Below are positions 1,850-33,367 of a stretch of 64,000 nt of DNA, one piece after another. Position 1 is the stretch's first letter. Each line of letters begins with the position of its first letter. The DNA comes from Candidatus Sericytochromatia bacterium. GTDB taxonomy: Bacteria; Cyanobacteriota; Sericytochromatia; S15B-MN24; JAQBPE01. The stretch lies in the NCBI GenBank assembly GCA_036675505.1, contig JAKFEW010000041.1, positions 8,580 through 72,579 of the forward strand, in the 5' to 3' direction. Below the pieces are notes generated by a model. That model had not been told where the DNA came from and searched no databases. It saw only the letters and a program-made list of their open reading frames with translations. A program made the position numbers and the translations under genes.

Positions 1850-3094
1850 CTACGGCGCGTCGGCCTCGTCGGCCGAGCCGCTCAGCGTGTCGCAGAGCTG
1901 TTCGACCGCCCACATGAGATCCTCGTCCGACACCACCAGCGGCGGCGCGAAGCGGATCGTCTTGTGGTGCGTCTCCTTGCACAACACGCCGCGGGCCCAG
2001 AGCGCCTCGCAGAAGGGCCGCGCGGCTGTATTCAGCTCGATGCCCACCATCAGGCCCTTGCCGCGGACGTCCGCGACGTGCGGGCTGTCCAGCTTGGCGA
2101 GGCGCGCGAAGACCATCTCGCCGAGGCGCGCGGCGCGCTCGGCCAGGTTCTCGCTTTCGATCACCTCGAGGGCCGCGATCGCCACCGCGCAGCCCAGCGG
2201 GTTGCCGCCAAAGGTCGAGCCGTGGTCGCCGGGCTTGAAGACCGCCATCACGTCCTCGCGGGCGATCATCGCCGAAACGGGATAGAAGCCGCCGGAGAGC
2301 GCCTTGCCGAGCACGAGCACGTCGGGCAGGATGCCCTCATGCAGGTAGGCGAAGAGCTTGCCGGTGCGGCCGAGGCCGGTCTGGATCTCGTCGAGCATCA
2401 GCAGCACGTTGTTCTCGCGGCAGATCGCCGAAGCCTCGCGCAGGAAGCCTTCGGGCGGCACGATGATGCCGGCCTCGCCCTGGATCGGCTCGAAGAGCAC
2501 CGCGGCCGTGTTCGGCGTGATGGCCGCCCGCAGGGCCGCCGCGTCGCCGTACGGGATGACCTTGAAGCCGGGCGTGAAGGGCCCGAAGCCGTCGCGGTAC
2601 TGGTGCTCGGTGGAGAAGCTGACCACGGCGATCGTGCGGCCGTGGAAGTTGTTCTCGCAGACGATGATCTCGGCCTGGTTGAGCGGCACGCCTTTCACCT
2701 GGTAGGCCCACTTGCGCGCGGCCTTGAGCGCGGTCTCGACGGCCTCGGCGCCCGTGTTCATGGGCAACACGCGCGGCAGGCCGGTCATCTGCGTGAGCTT
2801 CTGGTAGAACAGGCCGAGCTGGTCGTTGTGGAACGCGCGCGAGGTCAGCGTGACGCGCTGGGCCTGACGCATCATGGCGGCCAGGATGTGCGGGTGCGCA
2901 TGCCCCTGGTTGACCGCAGAGTAGGCCGACAGGCAGTCGAGGTAGCGCCGGCCGTCGCTGTCGGTCACCCACGCGCCCTTGGCCTCGCTGATGACGAGGC
3001 CCAGCGGGTGATAGTTGTGGGCGCCGTGGCGTTCTTCGAGGGCGATCAGGTCGCTGGCGGTGGGGGCCTGGTTCATGGCGTTCGTGGCGGTCAT
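1850..3094 (-). CDS. rocD: Ornithine aminotransferase (class III PLP-dependent aminotransferase).
   Basis: An internal ATG at 3094 gives MTATNAMNQ. The motifs HNYHPLGLV, a TFGGNP-like stretch, and [15 protein letters not shown] (PLP lysine region) are typical of ornithine-oxo-acid transaminase. The protein is about 414 aa. Confidence 0.8.
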
Positions 3095-3137
3095 GTCCCT
3101 ATGAAACCACAGCTCCCCTGCTCCGCGTAACCCCCTG

Positions 3138-3305
3138 TTTAGAGCGGTTTTCCTGTGGGTGAGCGAGTGCAGCGCGCCGGGCTGCGGCCCGGCTGCTAGG
3201 AGCGAGGAGGGCGCGTGCCCGAAGGCACGTAACCGACGAGCGACGACGCAGACGGGTCGCAGACCAAGCGATGCGCCGCGACACCCACAGGAAAACCGCT
3301 CTAAA
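3138..3305. repeat. 24-bp perfect inverted repeat (3138-3161 and 3282-3305) bracketing a 120-nt segment with nested hairpins. Candidate structured leader, terminator or small mobile repeat.
   Basis: Left arm tttagagcggttttcctgtgggtg. The right arm is its exact reverse complement. Inner hairpins are gccgggctgcggcccggc and cgtgcccgaaggcacg. The right arm overlaps the stop codon of the upstream AAA gene (3301-3303). The left arm lies about 45 nt upstream of the rocD start. Confidence 0.5.
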
Positions 3306-4680
3306 GGAGTTTGTGCTTTTTCATGTATGCTTCGAGGTCGTCGTATCGCCCGCCCTCGTTCGCGTACCGCACGTGGTTGCGCGCGGTCGCGAACCACTCG
3401 CCGGCGCTCGCGCGGCTCTCGGCGAGCGCCTTCGTGAAATCGTCCATCGCGACCGGCTGCACCTTGCCGGTCTTGAGCGAGCGCGCCAGCGCGCCCTCGG
3501 CGGCGCGCTCGCAGAGCGCCTTGAGGTCCGCGCCGGACCAGTTCGCGGTCCTGGCGGCGAGCTTCGCCACGTCGATCGTCTCGCCGCCCGGCAGCGAGGC
3601 TGCGTGGGTGGTGAGGATCGCCCGGCGCGCGGCCTCGTCCGGCGGCGGTACGAAGACCACCCGGTCGAAGCGGCCCGGCCGCCGGAAGGCCGGGTCGACG
3701 CTCCAGGGCAGGTTGGTCGCGGCCATCACGAGCACGCCCTCGTTGGGCCCGCCGATGCCGTCCATCTCGGCCAAAAGCTGGGTCACGAGCGCGCGCCAGA
3801 ACTGCGACTCGGTGCCGCCGCGCGAGGCGCCCAGGGCGTCGAACTCGTCGAAGAAGAGCACGGTGGGCGTGTGGCGGCGGGCGTCGGCGAAGAGCTCGCG
3901 GATCGCCTTCTCGCTCTCGCCCCAGAAGGCGTCGACGATGTCCGCCACGCCGAGGGCGACGAAGCGCGCGCCCACCTCGCCCGCGGTGGCCCGCGCGATG
4001 AAGGTCTTGCCGCAGCCCGGCGGCCCGTAGAGCAGCACGCCGCCGCCGGCCTTGCGGCCGAAGGCGGCGAAGATCTCGGGCGTCTTGTAGGGCGCGACGA
4101 TGCGCAGCTCGATCTGCTCCTTCACCTCGGCGAGGCCGGCCACGTCGGCGAACTTCACGCGCGGCGTTTCGGCTTCGAAGCGCTCGAGCAGCTCGGCGGG
4201 TGCGGCGGCCTCACCGGCCACGCCGGCCCGGACCGGGGCGGGCACGGGGGCCGGGGCAGAGGGCGCGGCCTCCGGGATGCCGGCGACCCAGGCGTCCCAG
4301 TCGGCGTCCGCGAGCGCCGGATCGGCGGCCCGCGCGGCGCGGTAGGCGTGGGCCGCGGCCTGGTCTTCGCCTTTCTCGCGCAAGACGATCGCGAGCTCCC
4401 GGCGCACGAACGGATCGTCGTGCCGCTCGAGGCATTGCTCGGCGCGGATCAGGGCCTCGGCGCCGAAGCCCGCCTCGCGCAGCAGCGGCAAGAGCTGCCG
4501 CAGCACGAGCGGCGGCTCGACGCGGAGGTCGGCGGCCTTGCGCAGGGCGGCGATCGCGTCCGCCGCCCGCGGCGTGCGCGCCAGCTGCTCGCCGTAATGC
4601 AGCCAGAGCGGGCCATTGGCCGGATCGCGCTCGCAGGCGGCGCGCAGCGCGTCGAGGATGGCGGCGTGGGGGTCGGTCAT
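3301..4680 (-). CDS. AAA+ ATPase with an N-terminal TPR-like helical domain.
   Basis: Start [12 protein letters not shown] at 4680. Walker A GPPGCGKT and Walker [11 protein letters not shown] are present. [24 protein letters not shown] is classical for the AAA family. The start overlaps the stop of the upstream TPR gene. Confidence 0.75.
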
Positions 4681-9059: not shown

Positions 9060-11885
9060 GTGTCCGCTCTGCGCATCTGGCTCCTGATTGCCGGCCCCGG
9101 CTGGGGCAAGACGACCGCAGCCCGCCGCCTCGCCGCCGAGGCCGGCGGCGAGGTGGTCTGGCTCACGCCCGCAGACCGTGCCGTCGGGACCGTGCCTTCG
9201 TCCGGTGCGGCCGCCGTGGTGCTCGAGGACCTTGCGGGCGAGGCCGATCGCGCCTACGTCCTTCGCTTGCTCGCCACGGTGGAGCACGCGCGCCTGGTCT
9301 TGACGGCGCGCCAGCCGCTCGACCTGCCGCTCGCGCGCCGGATCACGTTCGGCGAGGCCTGCGTGCTCGGCCCGCGAGACCTCGCCATCGGGCCCTCCGC
9401 TGCCGGGTCCGCGTCCTCCGTCCGCCGGTCGGACCCGGCAGCGGGCTGGCCGTTGGGCGTGGCCGCGCTGGTCGGGGGCGCGCCGCCGGCCCTGCTCGAC
9501 GCGCTGGTCGACGAGGAGTGGCTGGCGCCGCTGGCCCCCGCCGCCCGCACGGCGGCCGCGCTCCTGGCCGCGGTCGACACGGTGGGCGAGGCCGCGGCCG
9601 CCGCCGCCGGATGGGACCGCGCAGCGGCGATCGCCTGGGGCCTGCTTGACCCCGCGGGCGCGTGGCACCCGCTGGCCCGCGCCCGGCTCGCCATGAGCCC
9701 GCCGCCGCCTGGCGCCCGCGCTCGCCTGGCCGGGGCCCTGCGGGACGCCGACCCCGAGGCCGCGCTGGCGCTCTACCGAGCAGACAGCCGCGTCGAAGAG
9801 GCCGCGGCCTTGCTTCGGCAGGTCGGCAAGCGCTGGCTGCTCGCCGGCGAGACCGAGCGTCTCGCCACGGCCCTGGCCGGCTTCCCGCCCGGCAGCGAGC
9901 AGGTCGCCCCGGTGCTCGACCTGCTCACCGGTGCCGTCCAGCAGGCCCGCGGCGCCTACCCCGAGGCCGAGGCGTACTACCGGCGCGCGCTCGCGGCTTT
10001 CGACGCCAGCGGCGCGCGGGCGCTCGCCTTCGAGGCCGCAGGCGACCTCGTGCACCTCTTCTGGACCACCGAGGACCTCGCGCGCCTGGAGGCCGCGGCC
10101 CGCGACGCCCGCGCCCGCGAAGCCGACGCCACCCCGGCCGAGCGCACCGAGCTCGAGAACAACCTGGCCTGCCACCACTTCGCGCGCGGCGACGAGTCCG
10201 CGGCCGCGCGCGGCTGGCGGAAGGCGCTCGACCTGCCGCACCTCGACGATCCCCAGACCGCGTCCGTGCAGCAATTCGCGGCGCTCAACCTCGGCATCCT
10301 CGCCAAGGAGCGCGGCGAGTTCGCGGAGGCCATGCGGCTCTTCGCCGTCGTGATCGAGCGGGCCGAGCGCTTCCCGCTGCATCCGGGCGTCCCGCGCGGC
10401 GCCCGGCTGTATATGGCGGCGGTCGCGCTGCGCCAGGGCGATCGCCGCAACGCCGAGGCCTGCTTCGCTGCGCTGGGCGATGCCCTGCCCGAAGACCGGT
10501 ACCGCCGCGCGGAGTTCCGCCAGGTCGAAGGCGAGTACCACCTGTTCACGGGGGCCTTCGAGCCAGCCGAGGTCTGCCTCGGTGAGGCGCTCACGCTCTT
10601 CGCCGCGCTGCCGATGGACACCAACGCGGACGCGGGCCTCGCGCGGAACCAGCTGGGCGTGCTGCACCGCCACCGCGGCGAGCTCGCGGCGGCCCGGCGC
10701 ATGCATGAGGCGGCGCTGGCGCTGGTCGCGCCCTGGCCGCGCTACCACGCCCAGGTCCTGCTCGACGCCGCGGTCACGGCGCTGGCGGCCGGGGAGCCCG
10801 GCGCGGCCGAGCCGGCCCTCGCCGCCGCTGCGGACCTCCTGCGCGCCGCGCCCGCGGCCCACCTGGCGGCGGCGATCGCGCTGGCACGTGGCGTCACGCA
10901 TGCCCGGCGGGGCGACGCGGCCGCCACCGCGGCCCACCTGGCCGAAGGCCTGGCGCTCGTGCGCGAGGGGCCCCTGTACTACGTGCCGATCGCCCAGCGC
11001 GCGATCGCGCCCGAGCTGTGGTCGCTGATGGCGGCCCACGGTCACGCCGACTTGCTCGCGGCGATCGAGGCGCGTTTTCCGGAGGCCGCCCGGGCGATCC
11101 GCGCGGGGCTCGCCGCGCGGGCGACGCCCGCGGCGTCGCCGCCCGTCACTCTGCCACCTGTCGCGCCGAGCCGGGTGGCCATCCGCTGCTTCGGCGAGCT
11201 CCTGGTCGAGGTCGCGGGCGAGGGGCCCGCGCAGTGGCCGCGCAAGAAGGCCAAGGCCCTGCTCGCCATGCTCGTGCTCCGGCCGACCGGCGTGGCGCGC
11301 GAGGAGGCCGCCGACCAGCTCTTCCCCGAGCTCGGCGCCGAGGAGGGCCAGCACCAGCTCGACAACCTGCTGTCGTCGCTGCGAAAGATCCTCGATCCGG
11401 CCTTGCCGCCGCGCGTGAAGTCGGCGCGGCTCGAGGTGCGCGACCGCCGCATCCGCCTCGTCCGCGCAGGCATGGCGATCGACTGGGACGACTTCCAGGC
11501 CGCCCACGACGCCGGGCCCGCGCGCTGGAAGGAGGCGACGGCCCTGTACGGGGGCGATCTCTTCGCCGAGCCCGTGCTGCAGGACCACTTCGAGGCCGAG
11601 CGCCACCAGGCCCGCTCCCGGGCGGTCGTGATGCTGGCCCAGGTGGCCGAGGCGGCCTGGCAGGCCGAGCGCTGGGAGGCGGCGCGGGCGGGCTTCGAGC
11701 GGCTGCTCGCGATCGAGCCCGCCCACGAGGAGGCCCACTGCGGCCTGATGCGGCTTTACGCCTGCCTGGGCGAGGCCGCCCTCGTGCGGCGGCAGTACGA
11801 GGCGCTCGCCGCCGCGCTCCGCCGGGAGATGGACGAGGCGCCCTCGGCGTCGGCCCGCCGGTTGCTCGCCGAATTGCTCCCTTGA
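9060..11885 (+). CDS. STAND-type P-loop NTPase with TPR repeats and a C-terminal OmpR-type winged helix plus BTAD domain. Putative transcriptional regulator.
   Basis: An N-terminal Walker A (GPGWGKTT) is present. The central region is TPR-rich. The C-terminus has IRCFGELLVEVAG...KKAKALLAMLVLRP (wHTH) followed by a BTAD-like helical region (YGGDLFAEPVL...RLYACLGEAALVRRQYEAL). Confidence 0.7.
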   Translation: MSALRIWLLIAGPGWGKTTAARRLAAEAGGEVVWLTPADRAVGTVPSSGAAAVVLEDLAGEADRAYVLRLLATVEHARLVLTARQPLDLPLARRITFGEACVLGPRDLAIGPSAAGSASSVRRSDPAAGWPLGVAALVGGAPPALLDALVDEEWLAPLAPAARTAAALLAAVDTVGEAAAAAAGWDRAAAIAWGLLDPAGAWHPLARARLAMSPPPPGARARLAGALRDADPEAALALYRADSRVEEAAALLRQVGKRWLLAGETERLATALAGFPPGSEQVAPVLDLLTGAVQQARGAYPEAEAYYRRALAAFDASGARALAFEAAGDLVHLFWTTEDLARLEAAARDARAREADATPAERTELENNLACHHFARGDESAAARGWRKALDLPHLDDPQTASVQQFAALNLGILAKERGEFAEAMRLFAVVIERAERFPLHPGVPRGARLYMAAVALRQGDRRNAEACFAALGDALPEDRYRRAEFRQVEGEYHLFTGAFEPAEVCLGEALTLFAALPMDTNADAGLARNQLGVLHRHRGELAAARRMHEAALALVAPWPRYHAQVLLDAAVTALAAGEPGAAEPALAAAADLLRAAPAAHLAAAIALARGVTHARRGDAAATAAHLAEGLALVREGPLYYVPIAQRAIAPELWSLMAAHGHADLLAAIEARFPEAARAIRAGLAARATPAASPPVTLPPVAPSRVAIRCFGELLVEVAGEGPAQWPRKKAKALLAMLVLRPTGVAREEAADQLFPELGAEEGQHQLDNLLSSLRKILDPALPPRVKSARLEVRDRRIRLVRAGMAIDWDDFQAAHDAGPARWKEATALYGGDLFAEPVLQDHFEAERHQARSRAVVMLAQVAEAAWQAERWEAARAGFERLLAIEPAHEEAHCGLMRLYACLGEAALVRRQYEALAAALRREMDEAPSASARRLLAELLP

Positions 11886-21930: not shown

Positions 21931-22020
21931 GAGCGCTGAGGGATTCGAACCCTCGGAGGCTTTTGAGACCTCATTCGTTTTCAAGTCGGTCCAGGCGCCG
22001 TTTCGGGGAGTTCCGCCGAG
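21931..22020 (-). pseudogene. Degenerate tRNA-Ser-like remnant (copy A). It has an intact T-arm and anticodon-loop-like segments but no foldable acceptor or D arm.
   Basis: The reverse complement contains GAGGGTTCGAATCCCTC (T-arm), CTTGAAAAC (Ser-UGA anticodon-loop signature) and AAGCCTCCG (variable arm). It aligns at about 70% to the intact tRNA-Ser at 33283-33367. No cloverleaf of normal length can be made. Confidence 0.5.
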
Positions 22021-22108
22021 GCGGTCCGGGGCCGCTCTTCCTCGCCGCAGTTCGATCCTACCACGGCGGCGACTTCGTCCACGGTCCGCGTAGGCGGGGG
22101 CGCGGCGG

Positions 22109-22137
22109 GGAGGTGGCGCCCAAAATCGGCGCCCAAC
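22109..22137. repeat. Conserved direct-repeat motif, copy A: ggaggtggcgcccaaaatcggcgcccaac, containing two GGCGCCC half-sites.
   Basis: The same motif occurs at 24623-24651 and 33453-33480. Each copy lies about 80 nt upstream, in the minus-strand sense, of a tRNA-Ser or tRNA-Ser remnant. Confidence 0.6.
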
Positions 22138-22250: not shown

Positions 22251-24002
22251 ATGGCAGAGAATCCCTTGCTTCGATTGCTTTCCGCGGGCCTCGCCTCGAT
22301 CCGTGCGGTTGGCGCGGGCAAAGCAAGTGCGCCATCCAATCCCGGCATTTCGCAGGTGCAGTTGGAGGCTGTCGAGAAGTACCGTAAGGCTGCTGAGCGA
22401 GGCGACGCGGCAGCCCAGTATATGCTGGGGGATGCGCACGCCAAGGGCCAGGGAGTGGCACGGGACCACGCTAAAGCGGTGGAGTGGTGGCGCAAGGCTG
22501 CCGAACAGGGCAACGCGGATGCGCAGTGGAGTCTCGGGGTTGCGTACGACAACGGCTGGGAGGAAGTGGCGCAGGACCACGCCAAGGCTGTGGCGCTCTA
22601 CCGCATGGCCGCCGAGCAGGGCAACGTGAGGGCGCAGTGGAGCCTCGGCTATATGTACCGTGAGGGCCGTGGCGTGGCGCAGGACCACGCTAGGGCGGTG
22701 GAGTGGTGGCGCAAGGCTGCTGACCAGGGCGACGCAGCGGCGCAGTACGGCCTTGGCGTCGCGTACGTCAACGGCCAGGGCGTAGCAATGGACGAGATCG
22801 AGGCGGTGGAGTGGTGGCGCAAGGCCGCCGAACAGGGCAACGCGAGCGCGCAGCGCGACCTCGGGTCTGCGTACGCCTACGGTAGGGGAGTGCCAGTGAA
22901 CCGCAAAAAAGCGATGTTGCTGTGGTTCGATGCTGCTGAAGGGGGCGACGAGGCGGCCCAGTGTATACTTGGGGTTGCGTTCGATACTGGCGTAGGAGCG
23001 CCATTGGACCACTCCAAGGCCGTGATGTTTTATCGCATGGCCGCCGAACGTGGCAACGCGGAGGCACAGTACAACCTAGGGTTTTCGTACCATAGCGGCC
23101 GTGGTGCGGTGCAGGACGACGCAATGGCGGTGGAGTGGTGGCGAAGGGCCGCCGAACAGGGCGACGCGAAGGCGAGAGAGGCTTTACAGCATCCTCGCCT
23201 TGTCAACCAGGCGAGGCACCGCGAGACCAACGCCGGTGAGCGAGAGAAAGCCATGGTCAATGTCGGCACCTCTCAATATCCAAGTTACTCTGGCGCCGAA
23301 CTCCACAACATGAAGCGAGCCCTCGATCAGATGCTTGCTGAAAGGTTGCGAGCTGGCCTTTTGGAGGAAGCCAAAGAGATTCATACCAGGCGAGGTGAAC
23401 TCATTGCTTGGATAGAGTCGAAGAACCCCGCCTACAAGCATGCGCGTGAAACGTATATACTTCAGACTGAAGTCATTGACCGGATGATGATTGGCCAATG
23501 CTTTGAAGGGCCGTTCCAGGATCCGCCAATGTATGACCGCTTTGGTGCTCGGGATTCCAGCCCGTTCTTGGATGCAATAAGGGTAATGAAGGGTGAGTTG
23601 TACATTCGCACTGGATCACCATTCGGCTCCGAGCTTGCGGAGTTCATGACGACCAAGGACTTCAGTGTTCTGGAGGATGTTCGGCGAGGTCTAGCAAGTG
23701 AAATCAGGGAAATGGAACAGACGTCGTTGTCGCTTGGACGCGAGGCTGACGGACTTGCTTACCTGAAAATGCAACTTGAAGATTTTGAGACAATCCTAAC
23801 TGAGTCTTGGCTGTTTGCATATGAAATGCGAAATTGGCTGGTTCCCGAGGGGGACTCTGAATCTAACCCGGGCCATGGCCCCATTGACTTTAACGAATGG
23901 CAGGTGTGGAAGCGAATGGAATTCGAGCGGGCAAGTAGTATCTGGACCAACCACCAAGATGGTCCGCCGGCGGCGCTGCGAGTAAATGAAGCAGCAAGCT
24001 GA
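22251..24002 (+). CDS. Sel1-repeat protein (about eight Sel1/TPR-like repeats) with a C-terminal domain of unknown function about 290 aa long.
   Basis: There are repeated units of the form AAEQGNAxAQxxLGxAYxxGxGVxxDxxKAVEWWRKA. The gene is low GC. The C-terminal half has no recognisable motif. Confidence 0.7.
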   Translation: MAENPLLRLLSAGLASIRAVGAGKASAPSNPGISQVQLEAVEKYRKAAERGDAAAQYMLGDAHAKGQGVARDHAKAVEWWRKAAEQGNADAQWSLGVAYDNGWEEVAQDHAKAVALYRMAAEQGNVRAQWSLGYMYREGRGVAQDHARAVEWWRKAADQGDAAAQYGLGVAYVNGQGVAMDEIEAVEWWRKAAEQGNASAQRDLGSAYAYGRGVPVNRKKAMLLWFDAAEGGDEAAQCILGVAFDTGVGAPLDHSKAVMFYRMAAERGNAEAQYNLGFSYHSGRGAVQDDAMAVEWWRRAAEQGDAKAREALQHPRLVNQARHRETNAGEREKAMVNVGTSQYPSYSGAELHNMKRALDQMLAERLRAGLLEEAKEIHTRRGELIAWIESKNPAYKHARETYILQTEVIDRMMIGQCFEGPFQDPPMYDRFGARDSSPFLDAIRVMKGELYIRTGSPFGSELAEFMTTKDFSVLEDVRRGLASEIREMEQTSLSLGREADGLAYLKMQLEDFETILTESWLFAYEMRNWLVPEGDSESNPGHGPIDFNEWQVWKRMEFERASSIWTNHQDGPPAALRVNEAAS

Positions 24003-24021
24003 TTGGGCCAAGCGGGTGATG

Positions 24022-24492
24022 TCATCCGATGAAGCCGCATTTGAGGCAACCTTCTCCACCGAAATTCTCGTTGTATCGTAGCCCCCCACCCCAACCGCAT
24101 TTCGGACAGAACTTCCCAGGCTCGACGTCGTCCCACTGCCACGCACCAACATACTCCGGGATGCCGTCGCGATCAATGCTAGTTACTTCAAATACGTCCG
24201 GCTCAACTGATATCCAGGCATTTCCGTAGTGACAACGCAACTCCTCGTAGACTTCCCCGGCAGAAAAGTTGAACCATTCAGAATGGGCGCGCTTCGCGCG
24301 GTACTTTTGGTGCAACCTCGCTTCTAGGTCACGGTCATCGCTGGATGTGAGGTAGCCCATCAACTTTAGCTGCTGCGGGCTGCCGGTTTGAAGCTCTCTC
24401 ACTCTTCGAGGAACATCGCCACTGTACCCGATCTTTACGCGGATGCAGTTGTAGTCAGGGTTCTCGTTATCTGCAATGAAGTAAACGGCCAA
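24022..24492 (-). CDS. T5orf172 (GIY-YIG-like, MUG113) domain protein with a C-terminal zinc ribbon.
   Basis: CIRVKIGYSGDVPRRVRELQTGSPQQLKLMGYL...LEARLHQKYRAKRAHSEWFNF matches the T5orf172 consensus. The C-terminus has CPKCG...CLKCG. The gene is low GC. Confidence 0.65.
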   Translation of the reverse strand: MAVYFIADNENPDYNCIRVKIGYSGDVPRRVRELQTGSPQQLKLMGYLTSSDDRDLEARLHQKYRAKRAHSEWFNFSAGEVYEELRCHYGNAWISVEPDVFEVTSIDRDGIPEYVGAWQWDDVEPGKFCPKCGWGGGLRYNENFGGEGCLKCGFIG

Positions 24493-24495
24493 GAG

Positions 24496-24651
24496 TTGAG
24501 ACCTCGTTGTTCAGTCGCCCCAGGCGCCGGTTCGAGAAGTTCCGGCGAGATCGACTCGGGCCACGCTGGGTAGCCCCTGCTCGAGACTTCGTTCACGGTG
24601 GGCGGAGGCGGCTCCGCCGTGTGGAGGTGGCACCCAATTTGGCACCCAGAC
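24496..24651 (-). pseudogene. Truncated tRNA-Ser-region remnant (copy B). It lacks the T-arm but keeps the 5' half and the upstream direct-repeat motif (24623-24651).
   Basis: ttgagacctcgttgttcagtcgccccaggcgccggttcgagaagttccggcgag aligns to copy A (21965-22020). The repeat here is ggaggtggcacccaatttggcacccagac: both half-sites changed to GGCACCC. Confidence 0.45.
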
Positions 24652-24706
24652 TGAAGCTGTCATACCTCCAGAGGCCGTCGGTGTTGTGCAGCGAAGCTAG
24701 AAAGTT

Positions 24707-25516
24707 TCAGTGACTACCCTGGAGCAAGGGGAGGCGCAGTTCGCGTTCAGGCCCACGTTTAAGGTACTCACTCACTAGACGAATCCAGCATCGCAGTTCG
24801 GGACCCGGCACACGGACGAAGCCGTAGTGCTTTCGCTGGACCTGCTCCAACTCGTCATCAGGAATGCCAGGACCGACTTCGGCGATGTACTGAGCCAACC
24901 GGATCCCGATTCGGAAACCTAGGTCCTGGGTCATTACCAGAGAGCGCACTACGCAGAGGCTCGGAAACGGATTTTCGACACGATTTATCTCAACCACCTG
25001 GTCGAGAATAGCATTGAAGAACTGGTCATCGCCGGAATAGACTGCTCGCTCTTGGCCGGGCTCTGGCCATAGCTCAACGGCAACGGCCTCCACGTTCAGG
25101 AAGGTCGTGCGTGGGAGATCGGAAAAGCTTGGTTCGCTTACGCCGTCTTCTACGATGGCCCAAGTCCGCTCTAGAGGCCAAACATCAAAGAGCCACTCTG
25201 ACTTTCGTAACTGGAGCCCTCCGAACCGGGTTTCGCGGGTGATCAAGTCCTCGAAAAGATCGCGCAGGCTTTCCAAAGGCTGGCCCTGGGTAACGATGTC
25301 CACATCACGTGGACGGCCCACACTCCGGTGAACGAGTCGCGAAATGAGCAGAGAACGTAATGTGCCTCCAAAGAGGACCGCCTGCCAGTTGTGCTGGCGA
25401 ATGGACCCCGTAACATCCGACAAAGCTTCCCAGACGCCTTCCTGACGACGGCAGAACGAATCTACCTCCGTCCTTAGCATCATCTTAAGATCGTCGATTG
25501 TTGTAGCATTAGCCAT
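24707..25516 (-). CDS. Hypothetical protein with a nucleotidyltransferase (Pol-beta-like) fold signature. Translationally coupled to the upstream dGTPase.
   Basis: There is an 8-nt overlap with the dGTPase stop. The motif LFGGTLRS...RPRDVDIV (G[GS]...DxD) is present, with a later acidic residue at FDVW. The gene is low GC. The functional call is tentative. Confidence 0.45.
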   Translation of the reverse strand: MANATTIDDLKMMLRTEVDSFCRRQEGVWEALSDVTGSIRQHNWQAVLFGGTLRSLLISRLVHRSVGRPRDVDIVTQGQPLESLRDLFEDLITRETRFGGLQLRKSEWLFDVWPLERTWAIVEDGVSEPSFSDLPRTTFLNVEAVAVELWPEPGQERAVYSGDDQFFNAILDQVVEINRVENPFPSLCVVRSLVMTQDLGFRIGIRLAQYIAEVGPGIPDDELEQVQRKHYGFVRVPGPELRCWIRLVSEYLKRGPERELRLPLLQGSH

Positions 25517-26960
25517 TGGTCAACTCCGAGTGAAGACGCTTGGCAAACGAATCGGTCATGCCACAAACATAGTCTGTCACCAATTGAAGGCGATGATAAT
25601 CAACAGGCAAGTCTTTTTCCTGCACAGCAGAGTGTGCAAACACTTTGCGATAGGCATCAGAAAGCAGTGACTGCGATTTGCCAGCAAAGGACTTCGGCTT
25701 CGGGGCTTTGCCGGGTTCAAGCACGCTAGCACCCTCCCAAAAGAGGGTGAGCAGATCACTTATGACTTTCCGGCCCTGCAGTTCTAGCTTTAGATTGGAG
25801 TGTGTGCAGTAAATCTTGGTGCGTCCAATGAACTTCAATAGTTCCACAAATGGGGCTTGCTCACCTGTTCCCACCAACTCGCCCTCACCTTTGCCGTTGA
25901 ATCGCCCCTCCATGATTGCGTCGTAGTTCTGTTCGAACTCCCTGGCTGCCGCCTCTACTAGAACACCGATTGCAGCAGTGCGGAATGCGGCCGCATGGAC
26001 ATCGTCGGGCAAATCTGCTGGATTCTCGCTTGGCTTGAGAACACGTGCTTTACCTTCCAATACCCTTTCAACGGTATCTGATGCCGCTTTCAGTTTGGCG
26101 TCTTTGGTCGCAGGATCCTTATCGTCCCATATTGCTGCGAGTTCCAACAATGCCGCATCTTTCAAGAGGAACTGCAATTCGGGCCAAGACAAAATACGTT
26201 TCTTTACTCCGTCCTCGATGTCCGCAACAGAGTAGACAATATCGTCTGCAGCTTCAATAAGAAACGCAATGGGGTTACGCGCGTCGCCTGTCCCGGTCTT
26301 TTGCCGGATTCCTTCGATGAGGCTTTTTTCCGAAGTAAAGTAGCCTGGCTTCGATTTTGCGTGGTCAACGACTGTGCCCACCTCCATCGACGACGCCGTG
26401 TATTTGCATAGTGCAGACAACGTGCCAAAGGTTAGGTTCAACCCGTTATAGTCGGCCAGTACATGAAGCTTCGCCACGATTCGCATTGTCTGGGCGTTGC
26501 CCTCGAATCGCAAGAAGTCATCAACCAATTCTTGCCTGCCTCCAAGGAGGGCCAACAGTTCGCCCTTATTGAAGAACTTTCTGAACCATTCCTGGATGGC
26601 ATCTTCTCCAGAATGACCAAACGGAGGATTTCCAAGGTCATGAATCAACCCACAAGTCCCAGCAATCGCTTCGATCTGACGATCTTGCCCGTCTTTGATG
26701 TGCCCTTTCGGCAAGAGAAAGTCTTTGCTTACCTTCCTCGCAAGCCCACGGGCAACTGATGATACCTCCATGGAGTGGGTCAAACGCGTACGCACAGAGT
26801 CATGAGGCTCCAACGGAAAGACCTGGGCCTTGTCCTGAAGCCTCTTTACGGGTGACGAAAACACGACGCGATCGTAGTCACGTTCGAACTCTTCGCGGTG
26901 ATCACCACCGCTGGAAGACTTGCGAGGGCGTTCGGAGTTCAGAAGCGTATCCCAGTTCAC
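25509..26960 (-). CDS. dGTPase-family (Dgt, HD-domain) deoxynucleoside triphosphate triphosphohydrolase. Putative nucleotide-depletion defence effector.
   Basis: RLTHSMEVSSVARGLA and HDLGNPPFGHSGE are the HD metal-binding motifs. The C-terminus has YVCGMTDSFA. The protein is 483 aa. The gene is low GC, lies in an accessory island, and has an AT-rich promoter region at 26961-27023. Confidence 0.8.
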   Translation of the reverse strand: MNWDTLLNSERPRKSSSGGDHREEFERDYDRVVFSSPVKRLQDKAQVFPLEPHDSVRTRLTHSMEVSSVARGLARKVSKDFLLPKGHIKDGQDRQIEAIAGTCGLIHDLGNPPFGHSGEDAIQEWFRKFFNKGELLALLGGRQELVDDFLRFEGNAQTMRIVAKLHVLADYNGLNLTFGTLSALCKYTASSMEVGTVVDHAKSKPGYFTSEKSLIEGIRQKTGTGDARNPIAFLIEAADDIVYSVADIEDGVKKRILSWPELQFLLKDAALLELAAIWDDKDPATKDAKLKAASDTVERVLEGKARVLKPSENPADLPDDVHAAAFRTAAIGVLVEAAAREFEQNYDAIMEGRFNGKGEGELVGTGEQAPFVELLKFIGRTKIYCTHSNLKLELQGRKVISDLLTLFWEGASVLEPGKAPKPKSFAGKSQSLLSDAYRKVFAHSAVQEKDLPVDYHRLQLVTDYVCGMTDSFAKRLHSELTNG

Positions 26961-27023
26961 TCGCGGTTCTCCTCATTAAATGACGGTCTCAAAATGTAGA
27001 TACCGGTTAAACGTGACGAGATA

Positions 27024-28142
27024 CTATTTTTCAAAATCGAATTTCCCAGGCAAAAGCTGTAAATTGGGGCGAATACCTGAAATTGGAGGAGTCGAACTCT
27101 GACGTCCTCCATCAACGGCCGACATCAAAACGCCAAACGTCAAGGCCTCAAGTTCAGGAAGCGGAATACACAACTCCCGCGCTATCTCAACCTTTCGGCG
27201 ACCCTCTTCAAGCAACATTCCAAACACATTCCTGAAAATCTCTGACGTCTCGCGCGAGATCGAATCTGGTTCGTGAGTCCGAAAGCCGCGCTGTGAGACC
27301 TCAATCGCCATCGTTCGATACTGCCACTCAGTGAGTAACTCCAGATGGTGTAGTCGATAAGCAAGCGCGGCCACAGAAACGCCCCATCCGCGCTTAAGCC
27401 GAATTAGCCCATCAACAGACGGGGTACGGCGAATGGCTGCAAGAACAGATTCCGCAGGCATCAAGAAGGCAGAGGCGAACGCGTTTGCGTCGCGCTCCGG
27501 ATCCCGATCAGCGGGCATCCCAAAACGGTGCATCACCAAATGACCCAACTCGTGGGCTGCATCGAGCCTACTCCGCTCGCTCGACTTCTTTGTATTCAGA
27601 AACACGTAAGGCCGAAAGTCGCGCCAAAGTGAAAAAGCATCGACCTCTGCACAGTCCTCCGCAAGGGAGAAGACTATTACACCCTTTTCCTCAAGAAGAT
27701 GAACCATGCTTGGAATCGGTCCACTTCCAAGATTCCAATAGGCCCTAAGGACGACGGCAGCTTCTTCTGGAGAGTGATTGCTAAGATCGGGAAGATCCGC
27801 ATGGTCAAGTGAAAACTCTTGCTCAATCCAATCGGCCACGACAATACCCAATGCGCCAGCACCAAGCGCTGCGTCCCGCTGGCTCGCCGTCATTCGTTTA
27901 AGCGACCTAAAGCTAGCGCTCTCCGGCTTAGGTTCAAACAAAGTCGGTCCAGCGAAGAACTCAATCGGAAAGCAGAGTGAACGAGAAAGCTTGTTGAGAG
28001 TCTCACCGCAAGGGGGGCGACTACCGTCCTCGAACATCTGAAGAGCCCGTGTTGAGACCCCAACGTTCTCAGCCAACTTTACCTTGCTCAAGCCCCTACG
28101 CTTGCGCGCCAAGGAAAGCCTAGTTGGGTTGAACTCCGCCAT
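27024..28142 (-). CDS. Fused XRE-family HTH plus ImmA/IrrE-type zinc metallopeptidase (HEXXH) regulator.
   Basis: The start MAEFNPTRLSLARKRRGLSKVKLAENVGVSTRALQMFEDG (HTH_XRE) was verified at 28142. The peptidase motif is HELGHLVMH. There is a 23-nt overlap with the upstream gene. Confidence 0.8.
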   Translation of the reverse strand: MAEFNPTRLSLARKRRGLSKVKLAENVGVSTRALQMFEDGSRPPCGETLNKLSRSLCFPIEFFAGPTLFEPKPESASFRSLKRMTASQRDAALGAGALGIVVADWIEQEFSLDHADLPDLSNHSPEEAAVVLRAYWNLGSGPIPSMVHLLEEKGVIVFSLAEDCAEVDAFSLWRDFRPYVFLNTKKSSERSRLDAAHELGHLVMHRFGMPADRDPERDANAFASAFLMPAESVLAAIRRTPSVDGLIRLKRGWGVSVAALAYRLHHLELLTEWQYRTMAIEVSQRGFRTHEPDSISRETSEIFRNVFGMLLEEGRRKVEIARELCIPLPELEALTFGVLMSAVDGGRQSSTPPISGIRPNLQLLPGKFDFEK

Positions 28143-28845
28143 CCCTGGCCTCCATTTTGCGACGAACAACCTTGACCTTGGCCGAAGGCACCGAATCGAA
28201 GGACGGCACATCGTTGATCTCATCGAAGACGGGATCAAGGAAAATACGATCCGTCCAGCCAGTTACCTGACCACCGACGATTCCATTCGGCAGCGACAAC
28301 TCGCAATTCGCACCGGTTTCCGTCGGATTGATCAAAAGCCAATACGTTGCGCGCCTCTGAGGAGCGTCGCGCCGCTCGATGTCAAGTCCTAGCGCAAGCT
28401 GGTACTCACGAGCGTAGTTACTCTCGATGGCGCGCTCAGACGCAGACCCTCGGGGGTTCTTGATCTTCGCAACGCCATCTCGTTGCCCGGTGGCCGCATT
28501 TCCTTGCGCCGCAGTGATTGCGATATCCATCCCCCGGTGGTAAACGGTCTGGAGGCCGCAGTCGCGCATTGCCACCCAACCCGCCTCTTCAAGCAGGTCA
28601 CGAAGTTTGCGAATCGGCTTGCCCCAGAGAAGTGTTCCCTTCATGGAGTCTACTTCGTTCGGACCACACTCACGGTAAAACCCGAGTGCGTACAAAATTG
28701 CCTGGTGCAAGATTTCCTGTCGCAGTCCAAGGGTTCCCAGCTTCGCACTGGTCTCGTCGTCGCGCCAACCTAGCTCGTCCAAAAGCAAGTCCTCCTGAAC
28801 AGTTCGCCAGACCTTGACTGGCAGCTTCCGGATTTTATACCTCAT
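28120..28845 (-). CDS. Hypothetical protein (241 aa). It is the first gene of the operon that contains HTH-ImmA.
   Basis: Low-GC ORF that overlaps the downstream regulator gene. No recognisable motif. Confidence 0.55.
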   Translation of the reverse strand: MRYKIRKLPVKVWRTVQEDLLLDELGWRDDETSAKLGTLGLRQEILHQAILYALGFYRECGPNEVDSMKGTLLWGKPIRKLRDLLEEAGWVAMRDCGLQTVYHRGMDIAITAAQGNAATGQRDGVAKIKNPRGSASERAIESNYAREYQLALGLDIERRDAPQRRATYWLLINPTETGANCELSLPNGIVGGQVTGWTDRIFLDPVFDEINDVPSFDSVPSAKVKVVRRKMEARDGGVQPN

Positions 28846-28911
28846 TTGATGGGGGAAATCAAGAAGCAGTGTTCAACGGCCCGAGGTCCGGAGGCCAGTC
28901 TAGATTGTAGC

Positions 28912-29241
28912 ATCGAACAAGGGTTCGATCGTGTTCGGGAATTTGCATCCGGAGCGCCCAGACAAGGACCTCCTCCCGCGCCTGGACTTGAATGCGCCTA
29001 GGTCGTCTTTGGGCGCCAGAGATTGATCTGGCGCTCGAGTCGCCGGGCGCGACACCTCATGAACGCTCGTTGATCGCCCTGCGCACTGTTGGTCTTGAAC
29101 GACCGTTCATGACTTCTCGCGAACTCCTCGTCGGCATGCCCAGCCTCCCATACCCGCGCTGACCTTGGGTTCAATCACGTACCATCCCCCTGGCTTGGAA
29201 ACCCCGTCACTTGTCCGTCTCACTCCTTGAACGAACGTTTA
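28912..29241. promoter_or_regulatory. Promoter region with four GAAC-N4-GTTC-type palindromes (28912-28929, 29060-29073, 29096-29109, 29228-29241) and one GCGCCAGA-N6-TCTGGCGC palindrome (29013-29034). Candidate HTH operators.
   Basis: The sequences are atcgaacaagggttcgat, tgaacgctcgttga, tgaacgaccgttca and tgaacgaacgttta. They lie 70-400 nt upstream of the 28845 start of the hypothetical/HTH-ImmA operon. Confidence 0.45.
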
Positions 29242-29391
29242 TGAAGGTGAACACGATTCCGCAGGAGGTCTAGCCCTATGGCAAATCGGCGCTTCGTCGC
29301 CTACTGGCCTCAAGCGGCGGGAGTGCCACCCAGACGTGCACCTCCACCAACCGGCAGCTTCATGAGCCAGGGTCACGTGATACTGCCGCAC

Positions 29392-30009
29392 CTACTCACC
29401 GCACGTATGCAGGAGTCGGTAGTCCTGCGCCGTCTGCCACGCCGTCGCGAACGAACACGAGGCCTTCCGTGCGACTTCTGCAATCGACAGGTCGGGCGCG
29501 CTCTCGAGCGCGGTCCACACGTCGGCGCGAAACGACGGGCCCATAAGCACACGGTTTCGGTAGCCCGCGTGGCGTCGAACCAGAACTTCAGGCGAGAGCA
29601 CGTCCTCGTGGCGATCTCGGAGCGTGCCCATGGGCACGCGTAGCAATGACCCCCTGAAGCGCCCATCTTCGCCCCGCCACTTGACCTGGAACTCGGTGCC
29701 CGTCGGCAATAGATCAATCGGCGAGCCCTTGTAAGCGCTTGAGAGGCGGGCGAGTCGACGATCTCCTTTGAGCCACGAGGCGATGGCCGCCCAGTAGGCG
29801 CGGACCCTTTCGGACGGATACACACTCACGAGGCGCACGAGCCGATCGGCGTTGACGTGGTTGTGATGCACGCCGAGCCAAACGGTCAGGACGCCGAGCA
29901 CGCGGAAGTCACCATCGTCCATGCCGAGGGCAGAGGCGTGCAGGAGCGTACCCTCGATGTCCGCGTCGGCCTCGGCTTCAACGGCGAAGTTCATCCCGAT
30001 GCCCGCCAT
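29392..30009 (-). CDS. Hypothetical protein downstream of the MNT-type nucleotidyltransferase. Possible toxin-like partner. The start is uncertain (30009 or 30072).
   Basis: The ORF has protein-like composition and no canonical HEPN Rx4-6H motif. It abuts the stop of the MNT gene. Confidence 0.4.
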   Translation of the reverse strand: MAGIGMNFAVEAEADADIEGTLLHASALGMDDGDFRVLGVLTVWLGVHHNHVNADRLVRLVSVYPSERVRAYWAAIASWLKGDRRLARLSSAYKGSPIDLLPTGTEFQVKWRGEDGRFRGSLLRVPMGTLRDRHEDVLSPEVLVRRHAGYRNRVLMGPSFRADVWTALESAPDLSIAEVARKASCSFATAWQTAQDYRLLHTCGE

Positions 30010-30061
30010 GCGCGCCGCTAGCTCGTTGGGCGCAGGCGCAGGCCTTGGCGAGGTATCACGC

Positions 30062-30352
30062 CTAAACGGCATAACCGAGCCTCCGCGCGAGGCCAGCGAC
30101 CGTCGCCCCAACATGGGCGGGCCACAGCTCATTCAGGTCGATACCGGCCTCGCGCTGCGCCTTTGAGAACTCGCGAGCAGCCGCAGCGATGGCTGGTGGA
30201 AGTTCGGGCACGAGGATGTCGAAGTCGCGCGTCGGACGCTCGATGACGCCCATGAGACCTAGCGCCGAGCCGCCGATGACGACGCCCTCGAACCGCAGGC
30301 CGAGCCCGAGCATGTGGCGATCAAATGCTTCGATGGTCGGGCGGGGGAGCAT
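30062..30352 (-). CDS. Minimal nucleotidyltransferase (MNT-type, Pol-beta superfamily).
   Basis: VIGGSALGLMGVIERPTRDFDILV matches the hG[GS]x9-13DxD motif. The protein is 96 aa, typical of MNT antitoxin-like proteins. Confidence 0.6.
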   Translation of the reverse strand: MLPRPTIEAFDRHMLGLGLRFEGVVIGGSALGLMGVIERPTRDFDILVPELPPAIAAAAREFSKAQREAGIDLNELWPAHVGATVAGLARRLGYAV

Positions 30353-33274: not shown

Positions 33275-33282
33275 CAGTTAAG

Positions 33283-33367
33283 CGGGGAGTGTCGGATTCG
33301 AACCGACGGAGGCTTGCACCTCGGCTGTTTTCAAGACAGCTGCGATAGACCACTCCGCCAACTCCCC
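33283..33367 (-). tRNA. tRNA-Ser (anticodon UGA), 85 nt with a long variable arm.
   Basis: The reverse complement is GGGGAGTTGGCGGAGTGGTCTATCGCAGCTGTCTTGAAAACAGCCGAGGTGCAAGCCTCCGTCGGTTCGAATCCGACACTCCCCG. The acceptor pairs 7/7. The anticodon loop CTTGAAA gives anticodon TGA. The T-loop is TTCGAAT. The variable arm is 17 nt. Confidence 0.85.

Follow-up and report, generated by a model that had tools for sequence, protein, structure and literature searches.

The closest described relatives of the genes treated here are the Rosmer systems, in which a toxin of unknown function is combined with an antitoxin that carries a Zn-peptidase, and for which a delta-rmrA mutant was not obtainable (Millman et al. 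2022 preprint). Diverse RmrT toxins pair with the antitoxin RmrA, a helix-turn-helix (HTH)-ImmA protein (Ernits et al. 2023, PMC10440598), and RipAB (Spr1630/Spr1629) of Streptococcus pneumoniae is a Rosmer toxin-antitoxin (TA) system with a toxin directed at DnaN, the sliding clamp (bioRxiv 10.1101/2025.09.02.673660). According to the literature, rmrA is essential in transposon sequencing (Tn-seq) wherever the system is present, and Rosmer toxins have been linked to ClpX/ClpP dependence. Related peptidases occur in other regulators; the GAF domain has been reported as the part of CapP and IrrE that senses single-stranded DNA, and fused CapH-CapP forms have been reported in 15 CBASS systems (Lau et al. 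preprint). We analysed a stretch of 64,000 nucleotides (nt) from Candidatus Sericytochromatia bacterium (assembly GCA_036675505.1, contig JAKFEW010000041.1, positions 8,580 to 72,579 of the forward strand; hereafter, the window), in which two overlapping genes, designated here rmrT and rmrA, lie upstream of a dGTPase gene on the same strand. An initial annotation, made from the sequence alone, had suggested that the product of the second gene regulates the dGTPase operon.

Our results suggest, with a probability that we put at roughly 0.78, that rmrT and rmrA together make up a self-contained RosmerTA toxin-antitoxin anti-phage module, an ordinary member of the known family, in an island of low guanine-plus-cytosine (GC) content. 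This identification is based on the matches of both proteins to the curated RmrA and RmrT models and on their pairing in 80/80 loci of a comparative set. The features of the putative module are as follows.

28120..28782, minus strand: rmrT, putative toxin/effector, 220 amino acids (aa), TTG start at 28782
28791..28795, minus strand: Shine-Dalgarno sequence GGAGG, 8 nt before the TTG at 28782, read from the sequence
27024..28142, minus strand: rmrA, predicted antitoxin/repressor, 372 aa, XRE-HTH fused to an M78 (ImmA/IrrE-type) Zn-metallopeptidase
27954..28127, minus strand: HTH DNA-binding domain of RmrA, residues 6-63, helices in the model
27435..27770, minus strand: M78 peptidase core of RmrA, residues 125-236

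As initially described, the two genes overlap (by 23 nt, from the rmrA ATG at 28142 to the rmrT stop at 28120), and the regulator gene ends 63 nt before the dGTPase start (GTG at 26960) on the same strand. The rmrA ATG is preceded by GGAGG, and the two genes are translationally coupled through the 23-nt overlap.

The 372-aa protein matched the PADLOC RmrA model PDLC03949 with E 5.2e-143 (profile 2-361/363). The Pfam domains HTH_3 (residues 12-56) and Peptidase_M78 (residues 152-265) confirmed the fusion of an XRE-HTH to an ImmA-type metallopeptidase, related to CapH/CapP, ImmR/ImmA and DdrO/IrrE, that had been recognized at the outset. The HELGH motif (residues 197-201, at 27540-27554) is followed by a third ligand motif, ERDANAFASAFLMP, and H197, E198, H201, E216, A219, F222, M228 and P229 were invariant in 25 homologues; judged from the sequence, the peptidase active site (HExxH and the downstream Glu) should be intact. 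The PADLOC capP profile matched the peptidase core only (E 7.7e-16, profile 32-153/242), the capH profile gave only E 0.0038, and the NCBIfam model of the spr1629-family repressor/antitoxin matched residues 4-292 with E 9.7e-36 and 124 bits, below its equivalog cut-off of 335 bits. In the AlphaFold2 model of RmrA (predicted local distance difference test, pLDDT, 84.4), the linker between the HTH and the peptidase contains a short strand (residues 76-78) with the family-invariant residues S-F-R and a long helix (86-110), and the core is followed by an all-alpha region (243-334) and then by a disordered tail, with no beta-rich domain. Foldseek searches aligned the HTH with the N-terminal domain of CapH (7t5u; template modelling (TM) score 0.81), P22 c2 and SinR, and the core with CapP (7t5t, E 4e-5, 175 columns aligned of the 278 aa of CapP) and PprI/IrrE (8sln, 157 columns aligned). 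No GAF domain was found in RmrA by the structure model and Foldseek. We also note PDB entry 9vzy, a solved 393-aa 'HTH cro/C1-type domain-containing protein', which aligns to the RmrA profile over both its HTH and its peptidase portions (E 4.9e-9) and could represent the first fused HTH-M78 protein with a known structure.

The upstream protein had been proposed to be an effector or a sensor of 241 aa. Its match to the PADLOC RmrT model PDLC03935 (E 3.5e-35, profile 10-206/207) favours the effector, while the length probably has to be reduced to 220 aa. The RmrT family profile comprises 2416 cluster representatives with a typical length of about 215 aa, and the family proteins align to the 241-aa open reading frame (ORF; 28120-28845) only from about residue 22. 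The ATG of this ORF, at 28845, is the ATG within the inner palindrome of the conserved operator described below, the GGAGG listed above precedes the TTG at 28782, and the identical protein is 220 aa long in one public gene call. Because of these four observations, we consider that rmrT probably starts at the TTG and that the 241-aa reading is an over-extended artefact. The remote-homology search suggested for this protein in the initial annotation gave the PADLOC RmrT model, and nothing in Pfam, NCBIfam, PHROGs and PDB (by profile search for PDB). The 220-aa protein was modelled by AlphaFold2 with a 73-sequence alignment (pLDDT 89.7, predicted TM score 0.81) as three helices at the N-terminus and then a beta-beta-beta-alpha-beta-beta-beta core, and W69, G112, N122, E161, P165 and R179 are invariant in the family. 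A PD-(D/E)xK nuclease was considered, since the topology is suggestive and there are weak Foldseek matches to Hjc and the SPARDA nuclease; these all had E > 0.08, and the invariant residues do not make the nuclease motif, so we rejected it. The family is widespread (more than 2400 cluster representatives), and its confidently modelled fold, which resembles no solved structure, may interest those working on Rosmer systems.

Fused HTH-M78 proteins of the RmrA type are abundant (more than 5000 matches at E < 1e-20; 8000 candidates scored). For the comparison, we used 80 loci coding for relatives of RmrA (44-55% identity), drawn from, among other groups, Alpha-, Beta- and Gammaproteobacteria, Acidobacteriota, Actinomycetota, Chloroflexota, Planctomycetota, Gemmatimonadota and Cyanobacteriota. 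In every one of the 80 loci, an ORF matching the RmrT profile lies on the same strand and ends within 120 nt of the RmrA start, and in 78 of them the two genes overlap or are separated by no more than 30 nt. The flanking genes show no conservation, no downstream family being present in more than 3/80 loci and no upstream family in more than 4/80. A same-strand ORF of at least 150 aa starts within 150 nt past the rmrA stop in only 16 of the 75 loci compared, and the neighbour is convergent in 17 loci. Plasmid homologues of the pair are annotated as 'hypothetical protein' and 'XRE / ImmA-IrrE metallo-endopeptidase', and their neighbours vary as well, including AbiE and a DNA methyltransferase. 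The comparison indicates that rmrT and rmrA are strictly coupled to each other and not to any neighbour gene.

A conserved element also accompanies the pair. It was first seen by BLASTN of the spacer upstream of rmrT against the other loci: in four of them, belonging to different phyla, 42-48 nt immediately before rmrT were matched.

Spacer upstream of rmrT: about 550-610 nt long, depending on the rmrT start chosen
28822..28869, minus strand: dyad-symmetric promoter-operator of rmrTA, predicted by a covariance model and dyad covariation
28857-28862, minus strand: -35 TTGATT, in the 48-bp element
28840-28851, minus strand: inner palindrome CATCA-AA-TGAGG, in the 48-bp element
28834-28839, minus strand: -10 TATAAA, in the 48-bp element

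The window copy of the 48-bp element is CTGCTTCTTGATTTCCCCCATCAAATGAGGTATAAAATCCGGAAGCTG, with the outer arms GCTTCTTGAT / ATCCGGAAGC; the consensus from 55 aligned loci in all is aaACTTCTTGTTTTTCnnCCTCAnATGAGGTAnAAAAACnGGAAGnnn. The consensus consists of a sigma-70-like promoter (-35 TTGTTT, a 17-nt spacer and -10 TAnAAA) and an inner palindrome, CCTCA-N2-TGAGG. The outer arms are complementary to each other and yet variable among the loci (CTTC..GAAG, GTTC..GAAC, GTTAA..TTAAC, CTTCA..TGAAG, TTCCGAT..ATCGGAA). Complementary dyad cells amounted to 79.2%, versus 67.5 ± 0.7% in shuffles (0/500), and 135 cells were changed on both sides, versus 45 in shuffles. The operator covariation was 0.359 versus 0.147, with slid controls at about 0.1, and pairing fell to 42-54% when the partner columns were slid. 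A covariance model (R1) built from the 54 other loci, with the window sequence left out, found a single place in the 64-kb window (50.3 bits, E 1.7e-9), located at 28822-28869 of the minus strand; the palindrome accounts for a weaker match there on the other strand. In 82 other loci (1.19 Mb), 101/101 matches at E <= 0.01 were located just upstream of rmrT, one site per locus, including 14 loci outside the training set. The class of the outer arms follows the recognition helix of the HTH, GTTAA occurring with SP(V/I)TISRLE and CTTC with xRSISAYE.

Could the 48-nt dyad be an RNA hairpin instead? Mismatches of the G·T and the A·C type occur in near-equal numbers (55 versus 54, with the -35 column excluded), and the -10 is inside the element, so that the full hairpin would not be transcribed. 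For these two reasons, we favour a DNA operator wrapped round the promoter. The initial annotation had proposed autoregulatory palindromic operators, and autoregulation through palindromic DNA is indeed probable; the particular palindromes it named are not conserved, and the conserved operator lies at 28822-28869. A portable 48-bp promoter-operator with arms that track the recognition helix would provide a directly testable model of autoregulation, and it corrects the start sites of rmrT.

We propose that a dimer or tetramer of the RmrA HTH would bind the 48-bp element and repress the operon, and that RmrA would additionally hold RmrT inactive. Infection or the loss of RmrA would then free RmrT, for example if the peptidase of RmrA cut its own HTH-peptidase linker at the invariant S-F-R strand, and the freed RmrT would arrest the cell. 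Cleavage occurs at F↓M in ImmR and at L↓R in DdrO; by analogy with these two proteins, the S-F-R strand may be regarded, as a speculation, as a candidate site of RmrA self-cleavage. Several points weigh against the interpretation as a RosmerTA module. For this RmrT family, toxicity, neutralisation by RmrA and phage defence are presumed by family analogy, and we infer the binding of RmrA to the operator at 28822-28869 from sequence comparison. The link between arm class and recognition helix would fit protein-operator co-evolution, although it is confounded by shared ancestry. The RmrT model had no match with E < 0.02 in PDB and BFVD by Foldseek, and no activity is assignable to it. Finally, the search for an intrinsic terminator or a consensus promoter in the gap that separates rmrA from the dGTPase gene detected neither, and the module may therefore not be transcriptionally isolated.

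If the pair served only for addiction (post-segregational killing) and thereby stabilised the island, with neither a phage-defence role nor a link to the dGTPase, the overlapping genes and the palindromic operator over the promoter would be the expected type II TA layout, and the homologues on plasmids and the essentiality of rmrA wherever the system is present would also be accounted for. However, the Rosmer systems tested so far protect against phages, defence genes surround the pair (the dGTPase and T5orf172 genes here; AbiE and a methyltransferase in other loci), and the conserved, active-looking peptidase suggests a signal-responsive step. We therefore consider pure addiction improbable.

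The relation to the dGTPase genes was the centre of the initial annotation. The genes concerned, and the comparable pairs in other loci, are as follows.

25509-26960, minus strand: dGTPase, 483 aa, GTG start at 26960
24707-25516, minus strand: 269-aa ORF, overlapping the dGTPase gene by 8 nt
24707-26960, minus strand: pair of dGTPase and 269-aa-type partner in the window
9129-11100 of locus L054: pair of dGTPase and 269-aa-type partner
2378-4663 of locus L085: pair of dGTPase and 269-aa-type partner
2424-4654 of locus L086: pair of dGTPase and 269-aa-type partner

The dGTPase was identified as an HD-domain dGTP triphosphohydrolase by PADLOC (dGTPase, E 2e-71) and by TIGR01353 (317 bits, above the cut-off), and it scored 187 bits against the anti-phage dGTPase exception model, below the 400-bit cut-off. 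Homologues of the 269-aa protein lie directly downstream of a dGTPase gene on plasmids of Bacillus cereus (12-nt gap) and Phaeobacter piscinae (8-nt gap) and in Vreelandella utahensis (L054). Neither of the plasmid pairs has rmrTA upstream. The 269-aa family keeps the GG...DxD nucleotidyltransferase motif; hits to the head domain PolyA_pol of Pfam were obtained for its four members (4/4; best E 2e-6), and the family profile has weak matches to CCA-adding enzymes of class II and to poly(A) polymerases. To our knowledge, anti-phage dGTPase defence as published consists of a single gene, and the 269-aa partner may be undescribed. Since dGTPase-partner pairs exist on plasmids without rmrTA, the dGTPase and its nucleotidyltransferase-like partner appear to be a separate mobile two-gene cassette that adjoins rmrTA by chance of placement.

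The reading given in the initial annotation, a CapH/CapP-like damage- or phage-inducible switch whose main job is the dGTPase operon, the protein encoded upstream of it acting as sensor or accessory, has to be weighed against this background. The common strand, the 63-nt gap and the lack of a detected terminator or consensus promoter in it speak for such a switch, and among solved structures RmrA is matched best by CapP (peptidase core) and CapH (HTH). CapH-CapP fusions beside immune operons have been reported (Lau et al. preprint), one case being a DISARM system with a vapC-like gene and a fusion as neighbours, and a dGTPase gene abuts rmrA also in L048 (same strand) and L054. In the PADLOC comparison, however, the RmrA model beats capP by 127 orders of magnitude, and RmrA has no GAF, an all-alpha C-terminus and an alignment to only about 175 of the 278 CapP residues. 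Moreover, RmrT is always present (80/80) while the downstream gene varies, with a same-strand ORF within 150 nt in just 16/75 loci. A dGTPase homologue was found within 8 kb in 3/80 loci: in tandem on the same strand and abutting rmrA in L048, abutting but convergent in L054, and far upstream in L041. The convergent orientation in L054 and the occurrence of the dGTPase and its partner on plasmids without rmrTA are difficult to reconcile with a dedicated derepression switch for this operon. That assignment is thus not supported, and we regard the switch as still less probable than pure addiction. A fused HTH-ImmA gene after a hypothetical gene of about 215 aa should accordingly be annotated as RosmerTA and not as a regulator of downstream genes.

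An indirect connection between the RosmerTA module and the dGTPase cassette is conceivable. As neither a terminator nor a promoter was detected in the gap between rmrA and the dGTPase gene, read-through from the rmrTA promoter is possible in this island. The dGTPase and its partner would then have no promoter of their own and would be transcribed from the RmrA-repressed rmrTA promoter, and the loss or cleavage of RmrA on infection would both free RmrT and raise the expression of the cassette, which depletes deoxynucleoside triphosphates. We hold this extension to be doubtful; if true, it would constitute a two-layer defence, with independent modules wired in series. Any such coupling would, as the other loci indicate, not be a property of the RmrA family.

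The palindromes named in the initial annotation are situated 45-380 nt upstream of the conserved operator and are specific to the window.

28912..28929, unstranded: perfect palindrome ATCGAAC-N4-GTTCGAT
29013..29034, unstranded: perfect palindrome GCGCCAGA-N6-TCTGGCGC, forming the second hairpin of the fold with z = -4.0
29096-29109: perfect palindrome TGAACG-N2-CGTTCA
29058..29244, unstranded: three 19-nt copies of CTTGAACGnnCGTTyATGA, at 29058, 29094 and 29226

The N6 palindrome at 29013-29034 is present as described. Four GAAC-N4-GTTC palindromes had also been counted; only two exact ones exist in the whole 64-kb window (28915 and 29097), the others in the spacer carrying one mismatch (28863, 29061, 29161 and 29229). 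With at most one mismatch allowed, 6 of the 25 matches in the window fall in the 609-bp spacer, versus about 0.24-0.3 expected, and the GAAC-type cluster is non-random. For spacer palindromes with arms of at least 6 nt, the excess was marginal overall (5 versus 1.6 expected from shuffles, p ~0.05), and an 8-nt arm was also seen in 8% of the shuffles. The copies of the 19-nt motif at 29058 and 29094 form an inverted repeat with 24-nt arms. As a separate observation, the region 29005-29130 (minus strand) folds into a long hairpin, whose 24-nt arms come from two GAAC-type repeats, followed by an 8-bp GC hairpin (z = -4.0 versus shuffles); these hairpins have no U-tract, and a search of the spacer against Rfam gave no RNA family. 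GAAC-N4-GTTC is absent from the other rmrT upstream regions examined, and we therefore rejected it as the operator of the family. TACAAT (28904-28909) together with the ATCGAAC palindrome was likewise rejected as the main promoter, having no usable -35 and no conservation. For the window-specific palindromes, three roles are conceivable: an additional regulatory site, a box of the SOS type, or a structural element that follows the 246-aa gene listed below. The ATCGAAC-N4-GTTCGAT palindrome matches the Gram-positive/actinobacterial LexA consensus, TCGAAC-N4-GTTCGA, which may not be that of the host, and the cyanobacterial LexA box is GTAC-based, not GAAC-based. The least probable of the alternatives is accordingly that the palindromes at 28912-29244 are sites of the host SOS system (LexA, Cheo-box-like) or of another regulator, with a second upstream promoter of the island under DNA-damage control, since, despite the LexA-like match abutting the TACAAT hexamer and the strong enrichment of the motif (6 versus about 0.3 expected), the host is Sericytochromatia-like and may have a different LexA motif, no box of this kind is present in the promoter of the window's uvrD/pcrA gene, the DNA of the island is foreign (51-57% GC versus 70%), the hexamer has no good -35, and the strong hairpin pair could be structural or terminator-like.

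The GC content drops to 51-57% over approximately 22.9-29.4 kb, compared with about 70% in the rest of the window. Because of this drop, the genes of the rmrTA-dGTPase region are read as a foreign low-GC defence island of roughly 6.5 kb, and all the defence-type genes of the window fall within it (22900-29400). For the UvrD/PcrA protein of the window, the best named homologues, at 80-83% identity, are labelled as Sericytochromatia, a group of the Cyanobacteriota. The other features in and near the island are as follows.

30062-30352, minus strand: 96-aa ORF, weak match to DUF6036 nucleotidyltransferase
29392-30132, minus strand: 246-aa ORF, overlapping the 96-aa ORF
24022-24492, minus strand: T5orf172/MUG113 protein, 156 aa

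The 96-aa and 246-aa ORFs lie directly upstream on the same strand and may be a further small TA-like pair; neither had a match in PADLOC, NCBIfam or PHROGs. The T5orf172/MUG113 (GIY-YIG-like) protein at the island edge has a C-terminal Cys-rich motif, CPKCG...CLKCG, and weak matches to the PADLOC candidate family PDC-S57. No match to integrase or conjugation families was found among the island ORFs scanned. A non-coding element of about 160 nt occurs twice, at 21963-22123 and 24496-24637, with 67% identity between the copies; these flank a Sel1-repeat gene and the T5orf172 gene and have no Rfam match. The sole tRNA (Ser-TGA, 33282-33367) lies 4 kb beyond the island edge; a tRNA-linked integration site was considered and rejected, the two repeats resembling each other and not convincingly the tRNA-Ser.

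In comparison with known systems, the locus shares with type II TA systems that have HTH antitoxins (HipBA, HigBA) a palindromic operator over the -35/-10 and translationally coupled genes; unlike in those systems, the RmrA antitoxin carries an active-looking metallopeptidase and the toxin gene comes first. ImmR/ImmA of ICEBs1 and DdrO/IrrE (PprI) of Deinococcus have the same HExxH...E core, and the logic of a peptidase that cleaves a repressor would be plausible here too. Those pairs, however, are two-protein switches of mobile-element or DNA-repair regulons, whereas the scanned island ORFs gave no match to integrases or integrative and conjugative elements, and RmrA lacks the IrrE-type GAF and linker domains. 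The likeness to CapH/CapP (Lau et al. 2022; Calloji et al. 2026, PMC13228613) is closer, with an XRE-HTH and an M78 peptidase, the same catalytic motif, the best structural matches (7t5u/7t5t) and rare fused forms. RmrA differs in being a GAF-less, single fused polypeptide, with no separate repressor that has its own oligomerisation domain, and in being always accompanied by a toxin partner and not consistently beside a cargo operon. The antitoxin of RipAB has the architecture of RmrA, as seen from the spr1629-family match (residues 4-292, E 9.7e-36), and is essential, although with 124 bits the window RmrA falls well short of the 335-bit equivalog cut-off; no link between RmrT and the RipAB toxin turned up, the two toxins not having been compared directly. 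Within RosmerTA, the window RmrT (PDLC03935-like) appears to be a soluble alpha/beta protein of about 215 aa with no transmembrane segment, in contrast to the membrane-depolarising RmrT of Gordonia phage Kita, and the host here is a Sericytochromatia-like metagenome-assembled genome. In its toxin-first two-gene operon, its antitoxin of an XRE-HTH and an ImmA-type Zn-peptidase, its curated profile matches and its defence-island setting, the locus is nevertheless like RosmerTA.

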